Assembly: GCA_964413865.1 (NCBI GenBank)
Contig: CAYPUR010000003.1
Coordinates: 1-53,926 of the forward strand
Source of the DNA: an uncultured Verrucomicrobiota bacterium
GTDB lineage: Bacteria; Verrucomicrobiota; Verrucomicrobiia; Limisphaerales; J093
Length of the DNA: 53,926 bases
Direction of reading: 5' to 3'
Of the stretch, positions 1 through 13,143 are shown piece after piece. A model generated the notes under the pieces. That model did not search any database, had not been told where the DNA came from, and worked only from the letters and a program-made list of their open reading frames with translations. Both the position numbers and the translations under genes were made by a program. The first letter of the stretch is position 1; the number at the start of each line of letters is the position of its first letter.

Positions 1-53
1 GCCGGGTGCCCTCACCCGGCGTCAAGCCCCTGCACGCAAAATGAGAACTGCTG
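1..53. repeat. Repeat family A, partial copy cut by the window edge
   Basis: The reverse complement of 1-53 is identical by eye to 25896-25948 (cagcagttctcattttgcgtgcaggggcttgacgccgggtgagggcacccggc). It is close to 13494-13546. It contains the hairpin gccgggtg/cacccggc. Confidence 0.85.
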
Positions 54-99
54 GGATTTGTTTTGACCGGCGGGCGGGGCGATTGATAGCAATTGAATC

Positions 100-573
100 A
101 TGCGACACACCATTTCCGTGTTGGTCGAGAACAAGTTTGGCGTGCTGACGCGCGTGGCCGGTCTGTTTAGCGGACGCGGCTTCAACATCGACACGCTCAA
201 CGTTGCACCGACACAGGATTCGACCATGTCTCGCATGACGATCGTCACGCGGGGAAACGACGCGACGGTGGACCAGATCGTCAAGCAGCTCGAAAAGCTG
301 GTCGAGACCGTCAAGGTGCAGGACTTCCGGGAAGGCGAATTCGTCGATCGCGAGCTGGCCATGATCAAGGTGGGCGTCGACTCGAAGACGCGCGCCGAGG
401 TCATGCAGATCACCGACATCTTCAGGGCCAAGATCATCGACGTCCAGCCCAAGACGCTCACCATCGAGATCACGGGCGACGAGAGCAAGGTCGAGAAGTT
501 CATCGAGCTGATGAAGGCCTTCGGCATCCTCGAACTGACGCGGACGGGCAAGGTGGCTTTGCCCCGGAAATGA
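100..573 (+). CDS. ilvH: Acetolactate synthase small (regulatory) subunit
   Basis: ATG at 100. The 157-aa product has the ACT-domain N-terminus MRHTISVLVENKFGVLTRVAGLFSGRGFNIDTL typical of IlvH/IlvN. It lies directly upstream of ilvC. Confidence 0.9.
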   Translation: MRHTISVLVENKFGVLTRVAGLFSGRGFNIDTLNVAPTQDSTMSRMTIVTRGNDATVDQIVKQLEKLVETVKVQDFREGEFVDRELAMIKVGVDSKTRAEVMQITDIFRAKIIDVQPKTLTIEITGDESKVEKFIELMKAFGILELTRTGKVALPRK

Positions 574-763
574 GGCGGGATGGCGGGGCCGCGGGTACGG
601 CTTTCTATTTGACGCCTAGCGCCTCCTCCGGCGAACATCGGGTCTGGTTGGTTCGAATCCTGGCAACCGACACCCGGGTGGGAACAGGCGGATCGACAAA
701 GAGACAGAGACACAACCCGGTGTGGCTAAGCGAATGTCACACCACCATCACGGCATATCGACC

Positions 764-1864
764 ATGGCAACTATTGATTTCGGCGGCACACGGGAACAGG
801 TCATCACGCGCAAGGAATTCCCGATGGCCAAGGCGCGCAAGGTCCTCAAGAACGAGGTCATCGCCATCATCGGGTACGGCGTCCAGGGCCCGGCCCAATC
901 GCTCAACCTGCGCGACAACGGCTTCAATGTCATCGTCGGCCAGGCCAGCCAGTTCAAGCGCGACTGGGACCGCGCCATCCAGGACGGATGGAAACCGGGC
1001 AAGACGCTCTTCGAGATCGACGAGGCGGTCCGCCGGGCCACGATTGTCCAGTTCCTGGTCTCCGACGCCGCCCAGCGCGCCGTCTGGCCCGTCATCAAGG
1101 CCAACCTCAAACCGGGCGACGCCCTCTATTTCTCACACGGATTCTCGATTGCCTACAGGAAGCAGACCGGCGTCGTGCCTCCCGCCGACGTCGACGTCAT
1201 CATGGTCGCCCCGAAGGGATCCGGCACCTCGGTGCGCCGCAACTTCCTGACCGGCGCCGGCATCAACTCGAGCTTCGCCGTCGAGCAGGACGCCACTGGG
1301 CGCGCCGAGGAGCGCTGCCTGGCGATCGGGATCGGGATCGGATCGGGCTACCTCTTCCCCACCACGTTCGAACACGAGGTCTACAGCGACCTGACCGGCG
1401 AGCGCGGCGTGCTCATGGGCGCCCTGGCCGGCATCATGGAAGCCCAGTACGATGTGCTGCGCGCCAACGGCCACACGCCGAGCGAGGCCTTCAACGAAAC
1501 GGTCGAGGAACTGACCCAGAGCCTGATCCGGCTGGTCGACGAAAACGGCATGGACTGGATGTACTCGAACTGCTCGGCCACCGCCCAGCGGGGCGCGCTC
1601 GATTGGAAGCCGCGGTTCAGAAAGGCGGTCCTGCCGGTGTTCAAGGAGCTTTATCAGCGTGTCAAGACCGGCAAGGAATGCGCCCGAGTGCTCAAGGCGT
1701 GCGGCGCCCCCAATTACCAGGCCCAACTGCAGAAGGAACTGCGCGCCATTCGCGATTCCGAGATGTGGCAGGCCGGCGCCGCCGTGCGCGCTCTCCGGCC
1801 CAAGGAATCCGCCCGCGCCATCGCCAAAGGCACCAAGGGCATCTCGGGCCGCGCAGCCAATTGA
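764..1864 (+). CDS. ilvC: Ketol-acid reductoisomerase
   Basis: Rossmann motif VIAIIGYGVQGPAQSLNLRDNGFNV and the rest of the protein match KARI. The track start at 722 is GTG. In-frame ATGs occur at 734 and 764, and I chose 764 (MATIDFGG). Confidence 0.9.
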   Translation: MATIDFGGTREQVITRKEFPMAKARKVLKNEVIAIIGYGVQGPAQSLNLRDNGFNVIVGQASQFKRDWDRAIQDGWKPGKTLFEIDEAVRRATIVQFLVSDAAQRAVWPVIKANLKPGDALYFSHGFSIAYRKQTGVVPPADVDVIMVAPKGSGTSVRRNFLTGAGINSSFAVEQDATGRAEERCLAIGIGIGSGYLFPTTFEHEVYSDLTGERGVLMGALAGIMEAQYDVLRANGHTPSEAFNETVEELTQSLIRLVDENGMDWMYSNCSATAQRGALDWKPRFRKAVLPVFKELYQRVKTGKECARVLKACGAPNYQAQLQKELRAIRDSEMWQAGAAVRALRPKESARAIAKGTKGISGRAAN

Positions 1865-1872
1865 CACCGGTA

Positions 1873-1923
1873 CATTCCAACAAGACATTCCGTTGAGCGT
1901 TGAACGTTGAACGTTGAACGTTC
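1873..1923 (+). repeat. Left ~50-bp direct repeat of the island (includes heptamer array A, 1891-1923)
   Basis: cattccaacaagacattccgttgagcgttgaacgttgaacgttgaacgttc aligns by hand with 7543-7592 in the same orientation, with a few mismatches and one 1-nt gap. Confidence 0.8.
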
Positions 1924-1935
1924 TGAGTAAAACGT

Positions 1936-2144
1936 CGATGTTCCGGGGCGGTTGTTGCGCGGTTTGAATCGAGGGTTCAACGCTAAAACGGGGAGAGGAA
2001 ACGCTCAACGCTCAACGTTCAACGCTCAACGTTCAGAGCATGACGGCGATGTTCCGGGGCGGTTGTTGCGCCGTTTGAATCGAGGGTTCAACGCTGAAAA
2101 GGGGGAGAGGAAACGCTCAACGCTCAACCTTCAGAGTATGGCGG
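1936..2144. repeat. Two tandem units (~111 bp and ~98 bp), each ending in an inverted heptamer array (2000-2038 and 2112-2136)
   Basis: Both units begin cgatgttccggggcggttgttgcgcSgtttgaatcgagggttcaacgct...ggagaggaaacgctcaacgctcaac. Unit 2 lacks two heptamers. Confidence 0.85.
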
Positions 2145-2494
2145 CGCGCGGTGCGAAGGCTGGCGGCGAAGATGCGGATCAGTTCTTCCGTTTCGACAAG
2201 GACGTCGTCGAGCGCGGGAGGCGAGTCCACCAGAGGAACGCGCTGGGTGAGTCGCAGCCAGCGGCGAGATTCCTTCAGTTCTTTCAGACAGATGCTCAGT
2301 TTGTGGATGAAATCGTTGCGTGATTCAGCGGCTTGGGCTTCACCATGGTTCGGCAAGGCCGAAGTGCCAGAACGTAGCAACTGGCTGGCGACGTGATTTC
2401 CGGCTCGCGTTTGCGGCAGCCTCTCCGCCAGGCGTATGACCTGCGCCGCATAATCCAACAGCCGCTCTTCCAGGTCGTATTCCTTCGATGTCAT
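2117..2494 (-). CDS. Four-helix-bundle protein (23S rRNA IVS protein / Avd-like family)
   Basis: ATG at 2494, 125 aa. The segment SQLLRSGTSALPNHGEAQAAESRNDFIHKLSICLKELKESRRWLRL matches the four-helix-bundle (PF05635/TIGR02436-type) signature from memory. The last codons and stop lie inside a heptamer array. Confidence 0.85.
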   Translation of the reverse strand: MTSKEYDLEERLLDYAAQVIRLAERLPQTRAGNHVASQLLRSGTSALPNHGEAQAAESRNDFIHKLSICLKELKESRRWLRLTQRVPLVDSPPALDDVLVETEELIRIFAASLRTARRHTLKVER

Positions 2495-2550
2495 TTCTTC
2501 CTCCTTGCCGTGAACATGCCCAACCTCCGCTCCATTTTCAACCCAACCTT

Positions 2551-2622
2551 TGAGCGCTGAGCGTTAAACGTTGAGCGTTGAACGTTGAGCGCTGAGCGTT
2601 GAACGTTGAACGTTGAGCGTTC
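2551..2622 (+). repeat. Heptamer array D, ~10 units of TGARCGT
   Basis: Read directly: tgagcgc tgagcgt taaacgt tgagcgt tgaacgt tgagcgc tgagcgt tgaacgt tgaacgt tgagcgt tc. Confidence 0.9.
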
Positions 2623-2853
2623 TCGATGGATCTCGGTGCGAAGGCCGGCGCTGAAGCGCACGCACTTCAGATGGCTGAAAACTTTGATCCCGGCGACTGC
2701 CTCCGCCCCTCCCAACACCCGCATCGGCCCTGGCCGCCGCTTCCGGACAACGACAAGCCTCGCCGAAATTCCGCAAAATTCTCCGGCCGCTTCGCGGCTA
2801 AGAGAAAAGGGTAAAAGAGACAAAGAGCAAAGGATAACAACACAAGGAATCAC

Positions 2854-5800
2854 TCAGCGAACCAACCCACTCACCACCACACACCGAAACCCGAGGCACT
2901 GGTCGCGACCGTCGGGACGAACGTAGCCGCGAAACGAACACGACAGGGGCGAGGGATCGCCATCGACCCACGACCCGCCCCGCAACACGCGGAACTCCTT
3001 TCGCTTCTCGTCAGACCAGTTCGAGCACCACTCCCAGACATTGCCGCTCAGGTCCATGGCGCCGCAGTCCGCCTTGCCGCTCGGAAACAGACCCACCGCG
3101 CTCGTGTGCCCAAGGCCGGTCTGGCCGCAGTTGCAGTGCTGGGCGAAGTCGCCATCGTGCTCCGTGCCGCCCCAGGCAAAGTAGCGAGAACGGTCTTGTT
3201 TCTCCCCATCCCACTGAGCCGCCAGTTGCCACTCGTTCTCGTGGGGGAGACGGATTTCGAGGCTCCATTTCTCAGAGAGCCAACGGCAGAAGGCCACCGC
3301 CTCATACCAGCACACGCCAACGCGCGGATGGTTCGGTGTCTGAAAAACGGGGTCGTAATCCTCCGGCCCCTGCGCGTGCTGAGCCTCCCACCATTCCAGC
3401 ATCTCGGGTTCTTCCGCGGACGTCCAGGCCTTGGGGTGATGATAGCCATCCGGGGCCTTCACGAACGCCTCGAACTGCGCCACCGTGATCGGGTACTTGG
3501 CGATGAAGAACGCCCGCTTCTCCCCGTCCCGGACAAAGCCACGACCGAAATCCAGCGGCTTGTCGGCGGCTTGCTCGCCTCTGGGTCCGCACCAGACGAT
3601 GTTGGGCAGACCGTTGTCTTGCCCCACCCCTGGCGGCTGGTCCTCGAGCCATCCCCGAGCCGAAGCGGCTTCGGAGCGTTGGCCGATTTGTAGATCCCGC
3701 TGGCGGACAAGTCCATCCAATCGTTCGCGGATGACCTTGAGCTCCGCCTGGCCCTTGGCGGAGCGCTTGACGTCGTTAAGGCCGATCTCGCGAACGATCT
3801 GGCTGGCGAGCGAGGCCCGGCGCACGGAGGCAGAGTGCGAGGGTGCCGGCTCCGTGCAGAGCGAGACAGCGAGGCTACGAGCCAGGAGTGGCGAGTTGTT
3901 TTCATGGGCCTGGTAACCAGCGGCCAATCGGACCACCTCTTCCCAGTAGCCGCCGTCGTCGGTGATCAATCCAGCCGCGGACTCGAAGTCGAAGTGCTCG
4001 GCATCACAAACGTGCACGGCGGCCATGAACTCTTGGAGTTTGAAGGCCATGCCGAACTGGTGCCGGCCCTGAGCCACGAGCAGTCCCGCTCGGTGCTCGA
4101 TGAGGTGAATCACGTCTTTGGCCCAGTCCTCGCGTCTCTTAGCCGGCCACTTGTCGTGGGGTGGCAGTCCCGCCAGCGCATCGGCCAGGTCTTGTTCCGG
4201 AATGTAGATCGACGTTCCCTGGCGGTCGTCCGGAAGGCCTTTGAAGTCGCCCCGGTGGGCTCTGAACGCGAGTCTGCTCAGTTCGTTCTTGAACGCGAGA
4301 TCGCTCGTTTCGGCCTCCTTGAGCAAGTCTGGCAGGCCCTGCTTTGCCGGGCCTTGGGCGTCCCGTTCCTTGGTGGCCTCCCAGGCGAAGAGCAGCTCCT
4401 GGACGAAGAGCGCAAAGAGTTTAGCCCGTTTTTCGGGCAACTCGGCCCGGAGATGCAACTGGGCCATCAACGAGAGGAGATAGGGCGTGCGGGCCATCTC
4501 GTGTAGTTCCTCACGCTCGATGACCGCTTGGGTGAGGGAGTTCACGCGCTGAGAGGGAACATCGCGCCCCCGCGCCAGCAGTTCGGCATAGAAGCGCCCG
4601 ATGAACTCTCGAATTTTCTCGTCGTCCAGTCGTTCGATCTCAGCCTTCTGAAACCCGGGCACTTGCCACGCCTCATCCTGGTAAGAGACAGTGCGGCAAG
4701 TGACCACAAACCGGGTGCGTTCGAACGGCGGCGCGGTAAAGGCGGCCACCGTGTCGACCACGAACCGCTTCAATTCGTCCGGCACTTCGTCCAAGCCATC
4801 CAGGAAGACGATCGCCTGGCCGGCCTCGAGGGCTGCCTTTAAGGCTTGAGCCGCGCTTGGCCGGATGAGGGGAGGGAGTTGGCTCTCGATGAAATGCCAC
4901 ACGCGGTCGCCATCGACTCGGGCGAGGTTCGACTCGGGCGACTGGGCCAATTGATCGGCGAACTTCCGCAACTCGACGAAGACGGGAACCAGATGATTGA
5001 GGTCGCGGGGCCAGGCGAACTTCAACAGCTTGTCGCCACGGCGATAGCTGACTTCCAGGTGCTTCAGCCAGCCGGCAGCAGGTTCGAGGGCGTGCTGGGC
5101 CAGACAGAGGGCGAGGTGTTTCAGGAACGTCGACTTGCCCGAACCGGGCAAGCCCAGCACAGCGAGGCGCTTCTCAGTCGCCAACCGTTTGAGCATTGGC
5201 TCGGCGTCCGGCTCCAGTCTGCCACCACCCACCAAAAGATGGGGTTTGGCGTCGAGCGGGATGTAGACTTTCGCCAACCGAGGCGGCAGGCAGGGCTTGC
5301 CTGAGGAATCGGCGGTCGGCAGACAGCGCAGGCTGGCCTCCCCAATTTCGCAAAACAAGTGAGCCAGGTGGCGGCGGTAACCCTCGAGGGCCTGCGGAGA
5401 GGGTCGTGTCAAAGCTGCGGGAGACTTGGCTTGCCGTCGCCGATTCGGCTTGCGCACGCCCCCGGTTGCCTGGGGCGGCGGCGATCCCAGGAGCCAGGGG
5501 TGGCCGCGGTAGAACCGGGTGGGTTCGTTCTTGTCGGGCACCTCGATCTGGGTGGTGCCGTATTCTTCCGCCGACGCTGTTGGGAGAGCCTGCCAGGTTT
5601 GAGGGCAGATCATCGTTCCCCCGGGCGCGGCGCCAGCCCGGAGGCGGGCGGCCAGATCGGCACCGGTGGCGGCAAAGGACTTTCCATCGTCGAGGAAAGT
5701 AATCTCGCCGGAGGCGATACCGAATCGGAATAGAAAAGCCTGGTGCTCTTCGCGTCTGAGGTTCAGCCGGCGGCACTCCTCGTGCACCGCAACGGCGAAG

Positions 5801-6132
5801 CGATGCGCCTGGACCGCCTGTCGGACGGGAAAGCAGAAGCCGTCCCCGTGGTCCTGTTTCAGGTCGAGGACCGCCTCCCGGATGCGCGCCGCGCGCGCGC
5901 CGACACGCAGGACCTCAAACAACCATTCGCGAATCGATCGCTCGGCGTCGAGCGCGTCGGGCAAAAGACCCCGCAACTTCCGCTGCCGTCCGGTCGAGTC
6001 GGTGAGGTCATAGTTGATGATGAAGCCGGTGAACCGCGACGGCAGGGCGGCGGGGCTGACCGCACGAGCCGCTCTCGCCGGCTTCGGAGGGCGGCGCGAA
6101 GACAGGCCGCTGGATTTGTCATTCCGCTTCAT
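2854..6132 (-). CDS. Class III nucleotidyl cyclase-like domain + NACHT (STAND) NTPase + C-terminal FGE-sulfatase/C-type-lectin-fold domain
   Basis: Cyclase motifs are collinear: FIINYDLTDSTG, HGDGFCF, FRFGIASGEITF, ATGADLAARL (roughly nt 5503-6039). Walker A is GLPGSGKST and Walker B is IVFLDGLDEV. The C-terminal 253 aa (about 2857-3615) contain GVCWYEAVAFCRWL, NVWEWC, RVLRGGSW and GFRCV. The track start at 6222 is TTG; the first ATG is at 6132. Confidence 0.85.
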   Translation of the reverse strand: MKRNDKSSGLSSRRPPKPARAARAVSPAALPSRFTGFIINYDLTDSTGRQRKLRGLLPDALDAERSIREWLFEVLRVGARAARIREAVLDLKQDHGDGFCFPVRQAVQAHRFAVAVHEECRRLNLRREEHQAFLFRFGIASGEITFLDDGKSFAATGADLAARLRAGAAPGGTMICPQTWQALPTASAEEYGTTQIEVPDKNEPTRFYRGHPWLLGSPPPQATGGVRKPNRRRQAKSPAALTRPSPQALEGYRRHLAHLFCEIGEASLRCLPTADSSGKPCLPPRLAKVYIPLDAKPHLLVGGGRLEPDAEPMLKRLATEKRLAVLGLPGSGKSTFLKHLALCLAQHALEPAAGWLKHLEVSYRRGDKLLKFAWPRDLNHLVPVFVELRKFADQLAQSPESNLARVDGDRVWHFIESQLPPLIRPSAAQALKAALEAGQAIVFLDGLDEVPDELKRFVVDTVAAFTAPPFERTRFVVTCRTVSYQDEAWQVPGFQKAEIERLDDEKIREFIGRFYAELLARGRDVPSQRVNSLTQAVIEREELHEMARTPYLLSLMAQLHLRAELPEKRAKLFALFVQELLFAWEATKERDAQGPAKQGLPDLLKEAETSDLAFKNELSRLAFRAHRGDFKGLPDDRQGTSIYIPEQDLADALAGLPPHDKWPAKRREDWAKDVIHLIEHRAGLLVAQGRHQFGMAFKLQEFMAAVHVCDAEHFDFESAAGLITDDGGYWEEVVRLAAGYQAHENNSPLLARSLAVSLCTEPAPSHSASVRRASLASQIVREIGLNDVKRSAKGQAELKVIRERLDGLVRQRDLQIGQRSEAASARGWLEDQPPGVGQDNGLPNIVWCGPRGEQAADKPLDFGRGFVRDGEKRAFFIAKYPITVAQFEAFVKAPDGYHHPKAWTSAEEPEMLEWWEAQHAQGPEDYDPVFQTPNHPRVGVCWYEAVAFCRWLSEKWSLEIRLPHENEWQLAAQWDGEKQDRSRYFAWGGTEHDGDFAQHCNCGQTGLGHTSAVGLFPSGKADCGAMDLSGNVWEWCSNWSDEKRKEFRVLRGGSWVDGDPSPLSCSFRGYVRPDGRDQCLGFRCVVVSGLVR

Positions 6133-6291
6133 AGCGTGAGTGTGGGTGCGAGTGCGGATTGGCCGATGGGCGGGTTTGGTCGGGTGAGACTGCTCGGGTC
6201 TAGCGAGGCGCGCCTCAGACAAAAGCCAGTCCTCGTTTTCATGAGTAGTTCCCGTGTTTTCCGGCCCCTCTCTCCCGCGCCTCGCTCCTTA

Positions 6292-6361
6292 GAATCCTTG
6301 ACCCTTGAACGCAGCACAAAAACTTGACTTGTGTTTAACACGTTTCACCGGTCAAGGATTC
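6292..6361. promoter_or_regulatory. 12-bp perfect inverted repeat (gaatccttgacc / ggtcaaggattc) with a 46-nt AT-richer spacer
   Basis: The arms are 6292-6303 and 6350-6361. The right arm overlaps the stop codon of the CNB gene (6352-6354). The spacer contains the palindrome gtgtt-t-aacac (6331-6341). On the minus strand, aaggag follows the hairpin. Confidence 0.35.
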
Positions 6362-7389
6362 TCGAGATTCGGCGGCGGCTGGGCTTGGGGCTGGGTCCGT
6401 CGGCGATCGCGCAGGTCAGCTTTGAGCCGATAATGCCGCAACTCCGTTTCCAGTTGGATCAGCCGGTGCAGGATGACCGTGGTTTGCTCGACCGCCACAT
6501 GAGTGTTGGTGAACTGCGTCTCCTCGCGCAGTTTGGCCTTCTGCTCGGCCCGCACCTCGGAAACGAGAATGAGGATCGTCATGACGATGGCCTGGAGACT
6601 GACAAACATCGTAAGGCCATCGATGGTGGGCAGATCTTTCAACAGTTTGGGGCCATTGAATCCCAGCCAAACGGCCCAGAGGAGGAGGTTAGCCAGGGTG
6701 AACCAGAGCGAAGTCGAGACCTGTCTCGCCCAGTCGCAGAGGACCTGCCAGAGCGTTTTTTGGCATTCCGCCTGGGCGTCGCGGTCCTCCGGCCGGACGA
6801 GGCCGTCGCGTCGCACCGTCTTGGCCAGATGATCGGTGTGCCAGCGGAGCCGGTCGGCTACCTGGCGCAGGACCGCGAGGGCGGCGTCGGGGAATTGGCG
6901 CAACGTGTCCAGGAACGGCTCTCGAGGTACCACCAGGAGGCTGCAACCTTTGGGTGTAAAGGCTGTGGCCGTGCGCGTGCCGTTCTCGGCCAGGCAGGCC
7001 AATTCGCCGAAGAACTCGCCGGGTTCCCGTGTGTCCACCACCGCGTCCCTGGTGTTCTTCATCAACTTGTCGCGCAGGGGGTCTTTCGGCACGCTGGGGT
7101 GTGTGGGGATGATCAATTCCACACTGCCTTCGAGCACGATGAAAAACTCCTCACCCACGGAGTTGCGCTCGAAGATACTCGTCGCGGCCCCGAAGTCCCG
7201 GATGAAGACCTCCCGCGCGAGATGATCGAGGGCGGCCGTTGGAAGCTCACGAAAGAGGGTCGAGTCCTTGAGGTGGCGTTTGATCTCCGCCGGTGGAACA
7301 GGGATGCTCATCGGGAAGATTCTGAAAGAGCAATCGGACATAGGCAAGTCGCCAGTGTGGGCTGGAGAAACAGCATTGCGTCGGCCCAT
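6352..7389 (-). CDS. Cyclic-nucleotide-binding domain protein with C-terminal two-TM (DUF1003-like) module
   Basis: CNB signature FFGELACLAENGTRTATAFT. The C-terminus has two hydrophobic helices (WFTLANLLLWAVWLGF, GLTMFVSLQAIVMTILILV) followed by a charged coiled tail. In-frame ATG candidates are at 7389, 7341 and 7311. Confidence 0.8.
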   Translation of the reverse strand: MGRRNAVSPAHTGDLPMSDCSFRIFPMSIPVPPAEIKRHLKDSTLFRELPTAALDHLAREVFIRDFGAATSIFERNSVGEEFFIVLEGSVELIIPTHPSVPKDPLRDKLMKNTRDAVVDTREPGEFFGELACLAENGTRTATAFTPKGCSLLVVPREPFLDTLRQFPDAALAVLRQVADRLRWHTDHLAKTVRRDGLVRPEDRDAQAECQKTLWQVLCDWARQVSTSLWFTLANLLLWAVWLGFNGPKLLKDLPTIDGLTMFVSLQAIVMTILILVSEVRAEQKAKLREETQFTNTHVAVEQTTVILHRLIQLETELRHYRLKADLRDRRRTQPQAQPPPNLENP

Positions 7390-7542
7390 CGCCGATGCGG
7401 CGTGGAGGTTGGCGCAGTTATCACCAGATGCAGCGGGCGAGTATCAGGGTCCAACACCAGGATTTGACTCCGCCGGTCGAGGCTTTACCATACCGCCCGT
7501 GTGTCGAGGGTGTCGCGGCTCGCAGCCAACCGACACCCAGCG

Positions 7543-7592
7543 CATTCAACAAATCGTTCCGTTGAACGTTGAACGTTGAGCGTTGTACGTTC
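7543..7592 (+). repeat. Right ~50-bp direct repeat of the island (includes heptamer array E, 7559-7592)
   Basis: cattcaacaaatcgttccgttgaacgttgaacgttgagcgttgtacgttc is a direct-orientation match to 1873-1923. Confidence 0.8.
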
Positions 7593-7664
7593 GGTTCCAT
7601 CTGACTTGTGCATTGTGACTATGGCTATTCGAGGGGCGCATCGCGCGCCAGGTTCTTTCGTTCT

Positions 7665-9791
7665 ATGAGCCGCGTTCTCGCGACGGGTGTCGGGGCGCTC
7701 AGCCTCGCCTCGAGCCTGGCCGCGTCCGACGCGCCGGACGCCGGGCCGCTGGCGTCCGAGTGGACAGGCCCGCACGGGGGCCTGCCGCCGTTCGACCAGG
7801 TGCAGGCGGCGCATTTCAAACCGGCCTTCGAGACCGCGATCGGGGCCTATCGGGCCGAGATTCGACAGATTGCCGGCCAGGCCGCTCCGGCCGGTTTCGA
7901 CAACACGATTGCGGCGATCGAGAAGGCGGGGCGCACCCTGGACCGGGTCGAGGCCGTTTACGGCGTCTGGGGCTCGACGATGAGCACGCCGGAGTTCCGG
8001 TCCATCGAGCAGGAGCTCGAGCCGAAGCTGGCGGCGTTGCGCGATGAGGTCTATCAGAACGAGGCGCTCTTCAAGCGCATCGAGGCCGTCTACCAGTCGC
8101 CCGACAAGGCCCGGCTGACGCCCGAACAGCAGCGCCTTGTCTGGCTGCACCACACGGAGTTCGTCCGAGCCGGCGCGCGGCTCGACGCCGCCGGCAAGGC
8201 GCGCGTCGCGGCCATCAACCAGCGCCTTGCGACCCTGTACACCACGTTCAGTCAGAATCTCCTCGCCGACGAGGAAGGGTACGCCACGGTGATCGCGGAT
8301 GCGGCCGGCCTGGCCGGGCTGCCGGAGTCGTTCCGCGCGGCGGCGGCGGCCGAGGCGGAGGCGCGCGGGCAGAAGGGCCAGTGGGTGATCGCAAACACCC
8401 GATCGAGCGTCGAGCCGTTCCTGACCTACTCGACGCAGCGCGAGCTGCGCGAGCAGGTTTGGCGCAACTTCGTCAGCCGGGGCGATCATCCCGGCGCGCA
8501 CGACAACAAGCCCTTGATCTCAGAAATCCTCGGGCTCCGGGCCGAGCGGGCGCGGCTGCTTGGCTACGCGACCCACGCCCATTGGCGGCTCGAGAACTCG
8601 ATGGCCCGGACCCCCGAGCGGGCGATGGAGCTGATGGAAGCGGTCTGGAAGCCGGCGCTGGCCCGGGTGCGCGAGGAGGTCGCCGACATGCAGGCGATCG
8701 CCGATGCCGAATCCGCGGAAATCCGGATTGCGCCTTGGGACTACCGCTTCTACGCCGAGAAGGTTCGCAAGGCCAAGTACGACCTCGACGAGAACGAGGT
8801 GAAACCGTACCTGCAGCTCGGCAAGCTCCGCGAGGCCATGTTCTGGGCGGGCGGCCAGATCTATGGGCTGGTTTTCACGCCCGCGCCCGACGTCCCGGTG
8901 TATCATGGCGAGGTTCGTGTCTGGGAGGTTCGAGGCGCCGACGGACGCCACGTCGGGCTGTTCTATTTCGATCCGTATGCGCGGACGGGGAAGCGGTCGG
9001 GGGCCTGGATGAACGCGTATCGGAGCCAGGAACGGTTCGAGCGTCCGATCACGACGCTGGTCTCGAACAACTCGAATTTCATGAAAGGAGGGGCGGGCGA
9101 GCCTGTTCTGGTGTCCTGGGAGGATGCCAAGACCCTTTTCCACGAGTTCGGTCACGCGCTGCACGGCCTGTGTTCGGATGTGACCTACCCGTCGCTGTCG
9201 GGCACGCGCGTGCCGCGCGATTACGTCGAGCTGCCGTCGCAGATCAACGAGCGCTGGCTGGCGACGCCCGAGGTGCTCAACCGGTTCGCGCTCCACTCGA
9301 AGACCGGAGAGCCGATGCCGGCGGCGCTGGCCGGGCGCATCCAGAAGGCCTCGAAGTTCAACCAGGGGTTCGCCACGACCGAGTTCCTGGCCAGCGGCCT
9401 GATCGACATGAAACTGCACCTGGCCGGCGAGCGGGCGATCGACCCGGCGGCATTCGAGCGCGATGAACTCGAGCAGCTCGGCATGCCTTCCGAGATCGTC
9501 ATGCGCCATCGCATGCCCCAATTCGCCCATATCTTCGCCGGCGAAGGCTACTCCGCCGGCTACTACAGCTATCTCTGGGCCGACACGCTGACCGCCGATG
9601 CGGCGGAGGCGTTCCTCGAAGCCGGCGGCCTCTACGACAAGTCCGTCGCCGCGCGATTCAAACGCCACGTGCTCTCCGCGGGCAACACGGTCGAGCCGGC
9701 CGAGGCTTACCGGCAGTTCCGCGGGCGCGACGCCGGCATCGCGGCGCTCATGCGCGATCGGGGATTTCCGGTGCCTGCCGGGGCGAAGTGA
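7665..9791 (+). CDS. dcp: M3-family peptidyl-dipeptidase (Dcp-like), secreted
   Basis: Zinc motif HEFGHALH and M3 architecture throughout. ATG 7665 gives the signal-like N-terminus [20 protein letters not shown]. Confidence 0.85.
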
Positions 9792-9814
9792 CGCGCCGGG
9801 CCTTCGATCGCATT

Positions 9815-11137
9815 ATGAAACGCACTGACCACAAGACGGAACTCGCGGACCAGGCGCACCGCGATGCACCGGAAGACGCGGACGCCGTTCCAGACACCGC
9901 CACCGCCGAAAGCCGGCAGGGGGTCAAGTCCGTCCGAAGCCCCTCGAACCACGTTCCGCGCCTGCTCGAGAAGACGCGCGCGTTCCGCAATGCGGACGAG
10001 GTGCGCGGCCTGGGCCTTTATCCGTATTTCCGGACTATATCCTCGGCGCAGGACACCGAGGTCATCATCGGCGGGCGCAAGGTGCTGATGCTGGGATCCA
10101 ACAGCTACCTGGGATTGACCAACCACCCGAAGATCAAGGAAGCCGCCAAGGCGGCGGTCGACAAGTACGGGGGCGGTTGTGCCGGGTCGCGGTTCCTCAA
10201 TGGGACGCTGGACATCCATCTCGAACTCGAGGAGGCGCTGGCGCGGCTGGTGCAAAAGGAGGAGGTGCTGCTCTACAGCACCGGGTTCCAGGTCAACCTC
10301 GGGGTCATCAGCTCGCTGGTTGGCAAAGGGGAGTATGTGCTCGCCGACAAGAGCGATCACGCGAGCATCGTGGAAGGCTGCCTCCTGTGCCAGGGCAAGT
10401 TTGTCCGCTTCGCTCACAAGGACATGGCGGCGCTCGAGAACCGGCTTCAGATGATCGAGCGCGAGGCCGGCAAGCTGATTGTGGTCGACGGCGTGTTCAG
10501 CATGGAGGGCGACATCATCCAGCTTCCCGAGCTGTGCAAGGTGGCGAGGGAGTACGGGACCGTGATCATGGTGGACGACGCCCATGCCATCGGCGTGCTC
10601 GGGGATCGGGGGGCGGGCACGGCGAACCACTTCGGTCTGACCGACGAGGTGCACCTCATCATGGGGACGTTCAGCAAATCGCTCGCCAGCCTGGGCGGGT
10701 TCATCGCCTCCGACAAGGCCACGATCGATTACCTCAAACACCACTCGAAGCCGCTGATCTTCAGCGCCAGCATGAGCCCGGCAAACGTCGCCGCCGTGCT
10801 CGCCGCCCTCAAGATCATGACCGGCGAGCCGGAGCGCATCCAGCGGCTCTGGCACAACACCGACCGCATGAAGCAGGGCCTGCTGGCGCTCGGTTTTGAC
10901 CTTGGGGCATCGCAGACGCCGATCCTGCCGGTGTACGTGCGGGATCTGCTGACGACATTCAAGTTCTGCAGACAGCTCGAAGAGCAGGGCGTGTTCGTCA
11001 ACCCGGTCGTGTCGCCCGGCGTGCCGCCAGGCCAGGAACTGCTGCGCATCAGCCTCATGGCCACCCACACCGACAACCAGATCGATTTCGCCCTCGAAAT
11101 GATGGGCCGGGTTGGACGCGAGCTCGGTGTGATTTGA
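9815..11137 (+). CDS. Alpha-oxoamine synthase family PLP enzyme, serine palmitoyltransferase-like
   Basis: Motifs [28 protein letters not shown] and PLP-lysine motif [13 protein letters not shown] (the GTFSKS form is typical of Spt-like members). The alternative GTG 9788 overlaps the dcp stop. Confidence 0.8.
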
Positions 11138-11147
11138 GCCGCTGCCC

Positions 11148-12143
11148 ATGAAAGTGCTGCTGACTGGCGGCAACGGTTTCGTCGGCAGCCATATCCTGGA
11201 TGCGCTCTGCGCCCGGGACATTCCCGCGGTCCTCCTGGCGCGGCCAACCAGCAATCTGTGGTTCATCCGGGATCATCTGCCACGCGTCGAAGTGCGCCGC
11301 GGATCCGTGACCGATCCGGCCAGCCTGCGCGAGGCCCTGTCCGGCATCACACATGTCATCCACTGCGCCGGAACGACCAAGGCGCTGCGCCTCTCGGACT
11401 TCGATGCCGTCAACCGGGTCGGCACCGCCCACCTCGTGGACGCCCTCGACGCCCAAGCCGGCCAAATCCGGCGCCTCGTTCTGGTCTCGAGCCTGGCGGC
11501 CTGCGGCCCGGGCACCGCCCAAGCCCCCGCGCGCGAGACTGACACGCCGCACCCGGTTTCCGAATACGGACGCAGCAAGCTGGCAGCGGAACGCGAGGTG
11601 ACGGAACGTTGCCGCGTCGGGTGCACCATTCTGCGTCCGCCGGCCGTGTATGGCCCTCGGGATGGAGAGTTCCTGCGGCTGTATCGGACCGTGCAGCGCG
11701 GCTGGGCGCCTGCGATCGCGGGAGGGGGGCAGCCGCTGAGTCTGGTGTACGGTCCGGATCTGGCGTTGGCGGCGGTCGCTTGCCTGGATCACCCCGCGGC
11801 GGCAGGAAAGGTCTTTCACGTCGCCGGCGCCGAGGTGGCGACGGGAATGCAGGTGACCGACTTGATCGCGCGCGCATTGGGGTGCCGCGTGAAGCAGGTG
11901 CCCATTCCGGGCTGCCTCGTGCGTTTGGTTTGCGCCGCCGCCACTATGGGGGCGCGGCTCTCGGGACGGGCCAGCCTGCTGGCGCATGACAAGCACCGGG
12001 AGCTCCTGGCCGCGGGATGGGTGTGCGACGCGGGCCGTCTGCATCGGGAGTTGGGGGTGCGCTGTCCCACGCCGCTGTCCGCGGGCGCGGTCTCGACGCT
12101 GGCCTGGTATCGCGAACACCGGTGGCTGGCCTGGGATTCTTGA
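11148..12143 (+). CDS. NAD-dependent epimerase/dehydratase (extended SDR) family protein
   Basis: N-terminal Rossmann motif MKVLLTGGNGFVGSHI. It is 331 aa with ATG at 11148. Confidence 0.8.
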   Translation: MKVLLTGGNGFVGSHILDALCARDIPAVLLARPTSNLWFIRDHLPRVEVRRGSVTDPASLREALSGITHVIHCAGTTKALRLSDFDAVNRVGTAHLVDALDAQAGQIRRLVLVSSLAACGPGTAQAPARETDTPHPVSEYGRSKLAAEREVTERCRVGCTILRPPAVYGPRDGEFLRLYRTVQRGWAPAIAGGGQPLSLVYGPDLALAAVACLDHPAAAGKVFHVAGAEVATGMQVTDLIARALGCRVKQVPIPGCLVRLVCAAATMGARLSGRASLLAHDKHRELLAAGWVCDAGRLHRELGVRCPTPLSAGAVSTLAWYREHRWLAWDS

Positions 12144-13069
12144 AACCCTACGTTTTCATCGACTATGCGACCCAAGGGTACATCGCCCTTGTGGGTGTTC
12201 TGATTCTGCTGTTTCACAACCAGACCGTGCCATGCTGGCCGTGCCTCGTGGCGGTTCACGCGGCCTGCCTGGTCCTGGTGCATCTCCTCATCCAGTCGCA
12301 CGCCCGGTGGCGGTCCAACCGGTTCCTTGACTTCCTGCGGCATTTCTATCCGGTCCTGCTCTACACTGGATTCTATCGGGAGACGGGGATGCTCAACCAC
12401 ATGTTCGCGGGCGACTACCTGGATGTCCACTTCATCCGCCTCGAGGAAAGTCTCTTCGGCCTGCAGCCCTGCCTCTGGCTGATGGACACCTTCCCCTGCC
12501 TCGCGGTGAGCGAAGTGCTCTATGCCTCCTACTTCTCCTATTACATTATGATCTTCGGCGTGGGGCTTGCCCTCTTCGTCCGCCAGCGCCGGCAGTTCCA
12601 CCACTATGTGTCCGTGGTGTCGTTTGTCTTCTACCTTTGCTACCTGACCTACATCTGCCTTCCGGTCATGGGGCCGCGCGCCTTCTTCCGCGAGATCGAC
12701 GGGTTCCGGCTGCCCGATGCGATCCAGGCATCCGCGGGCCCGTTGGCGTACCCGGACGCCGTGACGCACGGCGTCTTCTTCAACATCATGGCCTGGATCT
12801 ACCGGAACTTCGAGAGCCCCGGCGCCGCCTTCCCGAGCAGCCACGTCGCGATCGCTCTCTGCACGGTCTGGTTCTCATTCCGCTACCTGCCGCGCATTCG
12901 ATGGCTGCATCTGGTTGTGGGGCTCCTCCTGTGTCTTTCAACCGTCTATTGCCGCTATCACTACGTGGTCGATGTCGTCGCCGGCGCCCTCACCGTCGCC
13001 ATCCTCCTCCCCCTGGCCAATCGCCTCTACCATCGGTTTCAAGCGCGCGAGGAAGCGATCGGCGAGTGA
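12140..13069 (+). CDS. PAP2-superfamily membrane protein (IPC/sphingomyelin-synthase-like PAP2_C type)
   Basis: Multi-TM protein with AFPSSHV and CRYHYVVDVVAG (H-H-D type catalytic motifs). The proposed TTG start at 12140 overlaps the SDR stop (TTGA). The start is uncertain. Confidence 0.65.
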   Translation: MKPYVFIDYATQGYIALVGVLILLFHNQTVPCWPCLVAVHAACLVLVHLLIQSHARWRSNRFLDFLRHFYPVLLYTGFYRETGMLNHMFAGDYLDVHFIRLEESLFGLQPCLWLMDTFPCLAVSEVLYASYFSYYIMIFGVGLALFVRQRRQFHHYVSVVSFVFYLCYLTYICLPVMGPRAFFREIDGFRLPDAIQASAGPLAYPDAVTHGVFFNIMAWIYRNFESPGAAFPSSHVAIALCTVWFSFRYLPRIRWLHLVVGLLLCLSTVYCRYHYVVDVVAGALTVAILLPLANRLYHRFQAREEAIGE

Positions 13070-13143
13070 GGCCCGCGGATGGGGGCCTCCAGCGCGCCCG
13101 TCTCGATCGCTGCATGCGTTTGAACCCGGGCCTCGCGCCCGCC

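Follow-up and report, generated by a model that had tools for sequence, protein, structure and literature searches.

What placed 5.6 kb of accessory DNA between ilvC and dcp, and how is cargo at such a site gained and lost? The question arises in an uncultured Verrucomicrobiota bacterium of the order Limisphaerales (assembly GCA_964413865.1), from a stretch of 53,926 nucleotides (the window) that is contig C3 of its draft genome, labelled G000 here (4.98 Mb in 395 contigs, 64.5% GC, 91% complete). The original prediction, made from the letters of the window, described an accessory island whose direct repeats are the footprint of recombination; an empty site in relatives, a second cargo at the same position and the absence of orthologues now support that description. 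We compared the locus across a genus sample of six genomes, among them the congeners G002 and G005, and with metagenome contigs or extracted loci, which carry L-numbers. The comparison favors, with moderate confidence, a reading in which the ilvC-dcp spacer is a recombination hotspot and positions 1924-7512 are strain-specific, repeat-bounded, mosaic content left by an old duplicative event and later turnover.

Occupancy of the ilvC-dcp spacer

The locus has at least three states: an empty site with a single copy of the repeat, a site with a 1.1-kb cargo, and the 5.6-kb cargo of the window. The latter comprises a four-helix-bundle gene, a cyclase-NACHT-FGE-sulfatase fusion gene and a gene for a protein with a cyclic nucleotide monophosphate (cNMP)-binding domain and DUF1003; as predicted, none is a housekeeping gene and all three lie on the minus strand, opposite to the flanking genes, and their domain identities were confirmed. 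No orthologue of the NACHT or the cNMP-binding gene was found among 30 relatives. ilvC is intact in every occupancy state, its product being 98 to 99% identical in amino acid sequence to those of the congeners, and the dcp product is 94 to 96% identical.

In G005 the two flanking genes are 69 nt apart (contig C185; dcp, 3609-5789; ilvC, 5859-6872), and their spacer contains a single copy of the repeat, in which the heptamer occurs two to three times. Positions 54-1903 and 7513-13071 of the window align to this contig at about 95% identity (blastn); both alignments include one shared stretch of 59 nt, the sign of a single-copy empty site. The metagenome contigs L033 and L034 are empty as well and are identical to G005 over the junction-spanning aligned region, spacer included. 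A comparison with related genomes had been proposed to find ilvC and dcp adjacent around a single repeat copy, and these sequences provide it. The breakpoints between presence and absence coincide with the repeat.

In G002 and contig L035 the gap between ilvC and dcp measures 1126 nt and holds a different cargo of about 1.1 kb: a PF05635 gene (E = 6e-20) that runs on the opposite strand and shows no detectable sequence similarity to the one in the window, followed by inverted (AAATCTC)n arrays and then a short PEP-CTERM-like stub. The arrays lie within 3559-3913 of L022 (G002:C44), as does a minus-strand open reading frame (ORF) of 29 residues that looks like an orphan PEP-CTERM sorting signal (MKPIVPEPSRSAILGAIGLLAYGALRRRT).

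The right junction is derived and common to both occupied states. Positions 7451-7552 of the window, which comprise 62 nt of the island and part of the right repeat, are 91% identical to G002 and L035 and to these only; the island interiors are otherwise unshared. Since the right repeat copies of G000 and G002 share differences from the true end of ilvC, the right junction is orthologous in the two genomes. The left repeat of G002 ends after CATTC, without an array. Within the shared 62 nt lies a sigma-70-like site, TTGACT-16-TACCAT (7464-7491, plus strand), which points toward dcp; it was called by consensus only, with one match against 0.7 expected, and might serve as a dcp promoter where the island parts dcp from ilvC.

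The bounding direct repeats

The island had been described as bounded by direct repeats of about 50 bp, at 1873-1923 and 7543-7592. Their presence stands and their length does not: each copy measures 80 nt and extends 29 nt further left. The left copy does not start 9 nt after the ilvC stop codon (1862-1864), as had been thought; it begins inside ilvC and takes in the last 21 nt of the gene (7 codons with the stop). In the right copy this pseudo-end of ilvC has decayed, with a broken frame and the TGA now CGA, and the copy ends 73 nt before the likely ATG of dcp, close to the predicted distance of about 70 nt. The two copies are about 80% identical across 80 nt, with an alignment score of 78, whereas shuffled sequences gave a mean of 13.8 and a maximum of 26 (0 of 2000 shuffles scored as high).

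Each copy has two halves. The 3' 32 nt are a tandem heptamer array, (CGTTGAR)4.6, and contain the longest exact match between the copies (20 nt); every exact block of at least 10 nt falls within the array. The non-array part gives 41 aligned columns at 76% identity, a score unmatched in 2000 shuffles. When the genome was searched for the repeat motif, as had been suggested, the array half proved ubiquitous and the half with the ilvC 3' end was restricted to the two bounding copies. Positions 1836-1879 match the single copy in the empty-site contig L021 at 95%. The repeats do not resemble those of insertion sequences, transposons or miniature inverted-repeat transposable elements, in that the island ends are direct rather than inverted, are 80 nt long, and come with no transposase domain.

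Heptamer arrays

Arrays were counted genome-wide with a strict pattern of at least three units; they run to about 3 to 14 units, and Tandem Repeats Finder reports a period of 7. The source genome has 29 CGTTGAR arrays on 23 contigs, 27 of them intergenic and several at contig ends, and such arrays were found in six of the six genomes of the genus. Being generic in this sense, the array half of the repeats cannot count as evidence of insertion. Within the 54-kb window, arrays are confined to the repeat copies and the interior of the island, where there are three more (2000-2035 and 2112-2133 on the minus strand, 2550-2621 on the plus strand); a 13-mer from the array occurs 13 times in the window, always between 1891 and 7579 (0.08 expected). 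The core of the heptamer, AACGTT, is palindromic, and arrays of opposite orientation still agree at six of seven positions. Because the core is nearly palindromic and the left junction of the island sits exactly at the end of an array, we infer that the arrays act as microhomology. The array at 2550-2621 is the probable breakpoint between the four-helix-bundle cassette and the NACHT module.

Heptamer tandem repeats scattered through intergenic regions are known from heterocystous cyanobacteria, where they are called STRR sequences. TAACTGA heptamer repeats occur in Beggiatoaceae, Cyanobacteria and Bacteroidetes, where a role in gene rearrangement is suspected at expanded intergenic regions (PMC4679880). 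The arrays described here resemble both in their 7-nt tandem units, copy numbers of about 3 to 14, mostly intergenic position, dozens of loci and tendency to break assemblies. They differ in the heptamer itself, CGTTGAR with its AACGTT core, in the phylum, and in their placement at island boundaries and, inverted, around four-helix-bundle genes.

Two further patterns were seen in the source genome. Many CGTTGAR arrays (on C63:21228-21280, C73, C127, C67, C59 and other contigs) are directly followed by a motif of about 50 nt, CGYTTCYGGTTCATGGTCCCCGCGCGCATTCAACCG.TGAATGTCAACGC, the core of which, GGTTCRTGGKCCC, has 12 occurrences. A second kind of heptamer array, (GGTTGAT)n, often adjoins the CGTTGAR arrays (C30, C313, C351, C110, C59).

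Table 1 Features of the ilvC-dcp locus, in window coordinates
Feature	Position	Strand	Basis or remark
ilvC (ketol-acid reductoisomerase), left flank	848-1864	+	TIGR00465, E = 2.7e-92
Left direct repeat: last 7 codons of ilvC including stop, 26-nt spacer, (CGTTGAR)4.6 array	1844-1923	+	Self-comparison, shuffles
Three tandem units of ~111 nt, each an array plus a ~70-nt unit	1891-2133		Arrays 1891-1922 (+), 2000-2035 (-), 2112-2133 (-)
Four-helix-bundle gene (Avd / 23S-IVS protein family)	2117-2494	-	TIGR02436, E = 2e-21; PF05635, E = 7e-13
(CGTTGAR)10 array upstream of four-helix-bundle gene	2550-2621	+	Tandem-repeat search, self-comparison
Conserved non-coding element downstream of NACHT stop	2786-2834	-	Pyrimidine-rich tract and GCCGC-GAA-GCGGC hairpin (2786-2798)
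Cyclase-NACHT-FGE-sulfatase fusion gene, 1092-1122 aa	2854-6132 (alternative start to 6222)	-	Pfam NACHT and FGE-sulfatase
Fusion gene, variable-repeat-like 3' end	~2857-2990	-	
Fusion gene, FGE/C-type-lectin fold	~2878-3537	-	
Fusion gene, NACHT	~4591-5166	-	
Fusion gene, class III cyclase-like domain	~5494-6027	-	
Second dispersed intergenic repeat (~60-125 nt), between NACHT and cNMP-binding genes	6251-6351		26 hits on 25 contigs of own genome
cNMP-binding and DUF1003 gene, two transmembrane helices	6352-7389 (probable start 7311)	-	PF00027, E = 9e-14; PF06210, E = 1e-6
62-nt stretch common to the different island of G002	7451-7512		91% over 7451-7552
Right direct repeat: decayed pseudo-3' end of ilvC, spacer, (CGTTGAR)4.6 array at 7560-7591	7513-7592	+	
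dcp (peptidyl-dipeptidase, M3 family), right flank	7665-9791 (likely ATG 7665)	+	NF007624, E = 1.8e-178

Origin of the island

The island is a mosaic rather than one element, and it is passive, with no mobility genes. No ORF of the island carries a recombinase or transposase domain, in agreement with the original prediction, and no integrase, excisionase or fragment of either was detected in the island or on the 54-kb contig; the source genome has 19 matches to PF00589, none of them on contig C3. An attachment site in a tRNA or tmRNA gene was excluded by a tRNA scan of the region and an Rfam scan of positions 1-12000, which returned nothing relevant. We also considered whether the arrays could be attachment sites of the one recombinase encoded beside an array, on contig C30, and rejected this candidate; the C30 gene ends like that of a housekeeping XerC/D protein.

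In the reading that we favor, one old duplicative event would have made both repeats, most likely by single-crossover (Campbell-type) integration of circular DNA bearing a copy of the segment that contains the ilvC end, the spacer and the array. The event would have preceded the divergence of the two occupied lineages. Host recombination would later have swapped and rearranged the interior, with the arrays as microhomology and the conserved flanks as anchors, and the empty allele would be the starting condition or, alternatively, the product of a deletion between the repeats. Integrase-less transfer hotspots between core genes ("genomic islets"), in which cargo is turned over by homologous recombination of the flanks, have reportedly been described by Oliveira et al. 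in 2017. The ilvC-dcp spacer is like them in being empty, or filled with one cargo or another, in close relatives, in lacking mobility genes and in carrying defence-like cargo. It is unlike them in that an 80-nt duplication of a core-gene end bounds the site, a structure that flank-mediated replacement neither needs nor makes.

Several observations weigh against this reading. Neither a recombinase nor a recombinase remnant was detected, which leaves the founding event itself unobserved, and the GC content of the island is not atypical and gives no sign of foreign origin. The repeats, at about 80% identity, are more diverged than the flanks are between species (94 to 97%); either the event took place long before the species arose, or the copies differed from the start. 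The three lineages lie at nearly equal distances, with left and right flank identities of 96.6% and 95.6% for G000-G005, 96.0% and 94.0% for G000-G002, and 96.1% and 94.8% for G005-G002, which puts G000 slightly nearer to the empty G005 than to G002; ancestral occupation followed by loss thus fits at least as well as recent insertion. There is no outgroup, because eight genomes that represent six further genera of the family have ilvC and dcp on different contigs, not side by side. The locus is sampled by six sequences only, and every cargo role is assigned from domains and gene order.

Some of these points suit a second history, which we regard as possible and hold only tentatively: the island would be ancestral to the genus, the G005 lineage would have lost its interior by RecA-mediated or slippage recombination between the repeats, and the repeats would be a relic of the rearrangement that first placed ilvC beside dcp. 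The adjacency of ilvC and dcp is confined to this genus, the divergence of the repeats exceeds that of the species, and the derived right junction is shared by the two occupied lineages even though their flanks do not make them the closest pair. However, the three-taxon comparison has no root and turns on small differences, and the junction could just as well have spread between lineages by homologous exchange. A deletion between the repeats is further argued against by the single copy of G005, which shows no clear left/right chimerism and whose pre-array segment, ACGCCCCGTTCC, is unlike both copies in G000.

We think it unlikely that the island is a decayed integrative element, inserted into the ilvC 3' end by a tyrosine or serine integrase (attL, 1844-1923; attR, 7513-7592) through an attP that imperfectly mimicked the gene end and so left ilvC intact, and later stripped of its integrase and most of its length. 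The locus has much in common with integrase-type islands and prophage remnants: a position at a conserved gene whose 3' end is duplicated in direct repeats while the gene stays intact, a single-copy empty site in relatives, and accessory, defence-like cargo. A displaced and decaying far copy of a gene end is a hallmark of such integrations, imperfect repeats are expected where attP only mimicked attB, and the 62 nt beside the right repeat, conserved across two different cargos, recall a "P-arm." Against it stand the lack of an integrase, an excisionase or a fragment, the GC content, and repeats that agree at only about 80% of positions and in which the sole long identical block is a generic heptamer microsatellite. 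Moreover, the two occupied alleles share one arm only, their left arms being unrelated, and no related integrase-bearing element was found at ilvC in the six genomes of the genus or in two contig collections.

That the repeats are irrelevant to the island, being two ubiquitous heptamer elements that merely lie in the flanking intergenic regions, is very improbable: the array half does recur throughout the source genome and the genus, and within the island itself, but the non-array half, ilvC stop region included, is significantly similar between the copies and has no further copy in the genome, both copies align with the empty-site sequence over one and the same stretch of 59 nt, and the repeat marks the points at which presence gives way to absence.

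Four-helix-bundle genes and inverted arrays

The left end of the island is built of three tandem units, in all of which the joint between the array and the unit of about 70 nt is the same. Comparison of 1903-2021 with 2014-2133 gave 90% identity across 120 nt, and self-comparison of the window gave 84% for a repeat family here. The second unit contains a relic of a four-helix-bundle 3' end (2019-2060, minus strand), which reads RRHALNVER-stop against RRHTLKVER-stop in the gene. The gene itself has its stop codon inside an array and is bracketed by inverted arrays, the arms of which (2000-2033 and 2567-2600) are 97% complementary.

This arrangement recurs. In the source genome, four of the six TIGR02436 matches, that of the window included, lie near period-7 arrays, and three loci, on C3, C1 and C140, have inverted array pairs with a different heptamer at each (the latter two at C1:64580-65078 and C140:490-571). 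Across 30 TIGR02436 loci from the source genome and 12 relatives (L050-L079), a period-7 array was found within 500 nt at 16, and an inverted pair of the same heptamer at 7; the background density of period-7 arrays is 0.02 per kb, so the association is strong. The heptamer varies between cassettes, with AGCGGTC, GGGTTGA, CAGAATC, GTGATCA, TCAGAGG, CCGACGA and AATGGAG among the cassette-specific forms. When 11 four-helix-bundle cassette loci of congeners were compared with the source genome, one was orthologous, and it is located at a contig end. The ilvC-dcp site holds two unrelated cassettes in two species.

A doubtful interpretation is that four-helix-bundle genes with inverted, cassette-specific arrays are small mobile cassettes of an undescribed kind, that the ilvC-dcp spacer is one of their landing pads, and that the arrays, as substrates of recombination, also captured the severed cyclase-NACHT immune module. 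Such cassettes may enter intergenic heptamer arrays and rearrange them. Two known relatives of the gene invite comparison. Like the intervening sequences (IVS) of 23S rRNA, it is a PF05635/TIGR02436 ORF enclosed by inverted repeats able to form a long stem; unlike them, its inverted repeats are heptamer arrays, and no rRNA or Rfam family was found within positions 1-12000. PF05635 also resembles Avd of diversity-generating retroelements (DGRs), whereas neither a reverse transcriptase (RT) nor a template repeat (TR) adjoins the gene in the window.

A putative cyclic-nucleotide module

Pfam alone did not identify the N-terminal domain of the NACHT protein, and a single-sequence AlphaFold model of it (mean pLDDT, 36.5) was set aside for a profile search. 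The N-terminal residues, about 200 in number, have 186 distant relatives. A profile of the domain together with 31 of them, searched against PDB sequences, matched class III nucleotidyl cyclases of solved structure (3mr7, E = 1.8e-27; Ma1120, E of about 1e-19), and both metal-binding aspartates are kept in the alignment.

With 11 hits in the database, the cNMP-binding/DUF1003 family is a rare one; the database copy has 319 aa. Its gene stands directly upstream of a gene with the same cyclase-like domain in three independent metagenome contexts. In L090 the cyclase-like protein is a stand-alone protein of 277 aa, 57% identical, and its gene overlaps the cNMP-binding gene by 4 nt; in L094 the domain is 32% identical (E = 1e-18); in L043 (contigs carrying P0003) a weak cyclase domain is fused to a Ser/Thr kinase and followed by an AAA_16 STAND ATPase. 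The pairing of the cNMP-binding gene with a cyclase-like gene thus forms a conserved module, as it recurs in all three. A 122-aa gene without a Pfam match lies upstream in L043, in divergent orientation.

Judging from domain content, the cyclase-NACHT-FGE sensor probably makes a cyclic nucleotide, and the upstream-encoded cNMP-binding protein with its two transmembrane helices probably reads it. Pycsar systems likewise combine a nucleotide cyclase with an adjacent effector in which a cNMP-binding domain is fused to transmembrane helices or, in other cases, to a TIR domain; they differ in that the cyclase here is fused to NACHT and FGE and the membrane part of the effector is DUF1003. A PADLOC search gave no system-level match and no PycC hit for the fusion protein, and the cNMP-binding domain matched the PycTIR and effector models only weakly (E of about 3e-8).

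A link to diversity-generating retroelements

STAND/NACHT proteins with a C-terminal C-type lectin (CLec) fold have been described as DGR targets (PMC10907252, PMC7159879), and PF05635, which is Avd-like, is the Pfam family most frequent in DGR-associated neighbourhoods (PMC10053308). The best homologue of the NACHT-FGE protein, encoded on contig C41 of G021, is 48% identical. Downstream of its variable repeat (VR) lies a second copy, the TR, that differs from the VR only at template adenines, and a gene for an RT (RVT_1, 428 aa) is adjacent. Because of the adenine-only differences and the RT at the locus, this homologue is a genuine DGR target. The locus (L049; C41:6001-20000, about 3699-9274) is a complete DGR from another family of the order, in the sequence NACHT-FGE target, VR, conserved 49-nt element, TR about 280 nt downstream, 114-aa ORF without a Pfam match, and 428-aa RT. 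The target is read through one TGA and one TAA and is possibly a pseudogene or an assembly error.

Over 49 nt, the non-coding element at 2786-2834 and its counterpart after the G021 stop codon share 92% identity, although the proteins share only 48%, and the GCCGC-GAA-GCGGC hairpin is predicted in both sequences. In the window, the fusion protein has a PF03781 C terminus and a PF05635 gene lies downstream, features of a DGR target to which the relative adds a VR/TR pair and an RT. A TR-like copy of 2781-3160 was not found in the 91%-complete assembly, nor was a DGR RT; the assembly yielded two RTs in all. The RT on C236 (4330-5613) has a group II intron-type N terminus (…RFYSLYDKIYRR…), and that on C123 (1083-1700; a 576-aa open frame) is only presumed to be of the same type. 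On these grounds the module looks like a DGR target that was cut off from its TR and RT at the 2550-2621 array.

The protein shares with DGR-diversified NACHT-CLec sensors the central NACHT, the C-terminal FGE/CLec fold, the VR-like end and the conserved element downstream of it. What sets it apart is the N-terminal effector, which is class III cyclase-like and paired with a cNMP-binding membrane protein; the word "cyclase" is not mentioned in PMC10907252 or PMC10053308. The cyclase-STAND module, of which we found no description, may be a new STAND-gated cyclic-nucleotide defence system.

Significance

As islands go, the locus is of an ordinary type; less commonplace are the cyclase-STAND module and the link between four-helix-bundle genes and arrays. 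The boundaries of the island and the accessory status of its cNMP-binding and cyclase-STAND cargo are now fixed, and the cargo merits separate study. In an uncultured genus of Verrucomicrobiota, the spacer illustrates how genes come and go at a chromosomal hotspot: it has three allelic states, base-resolved breakpoints and no mobility gene. These observations implicate host recombination and simple heptamer arrays in how cargo is captured and lost.

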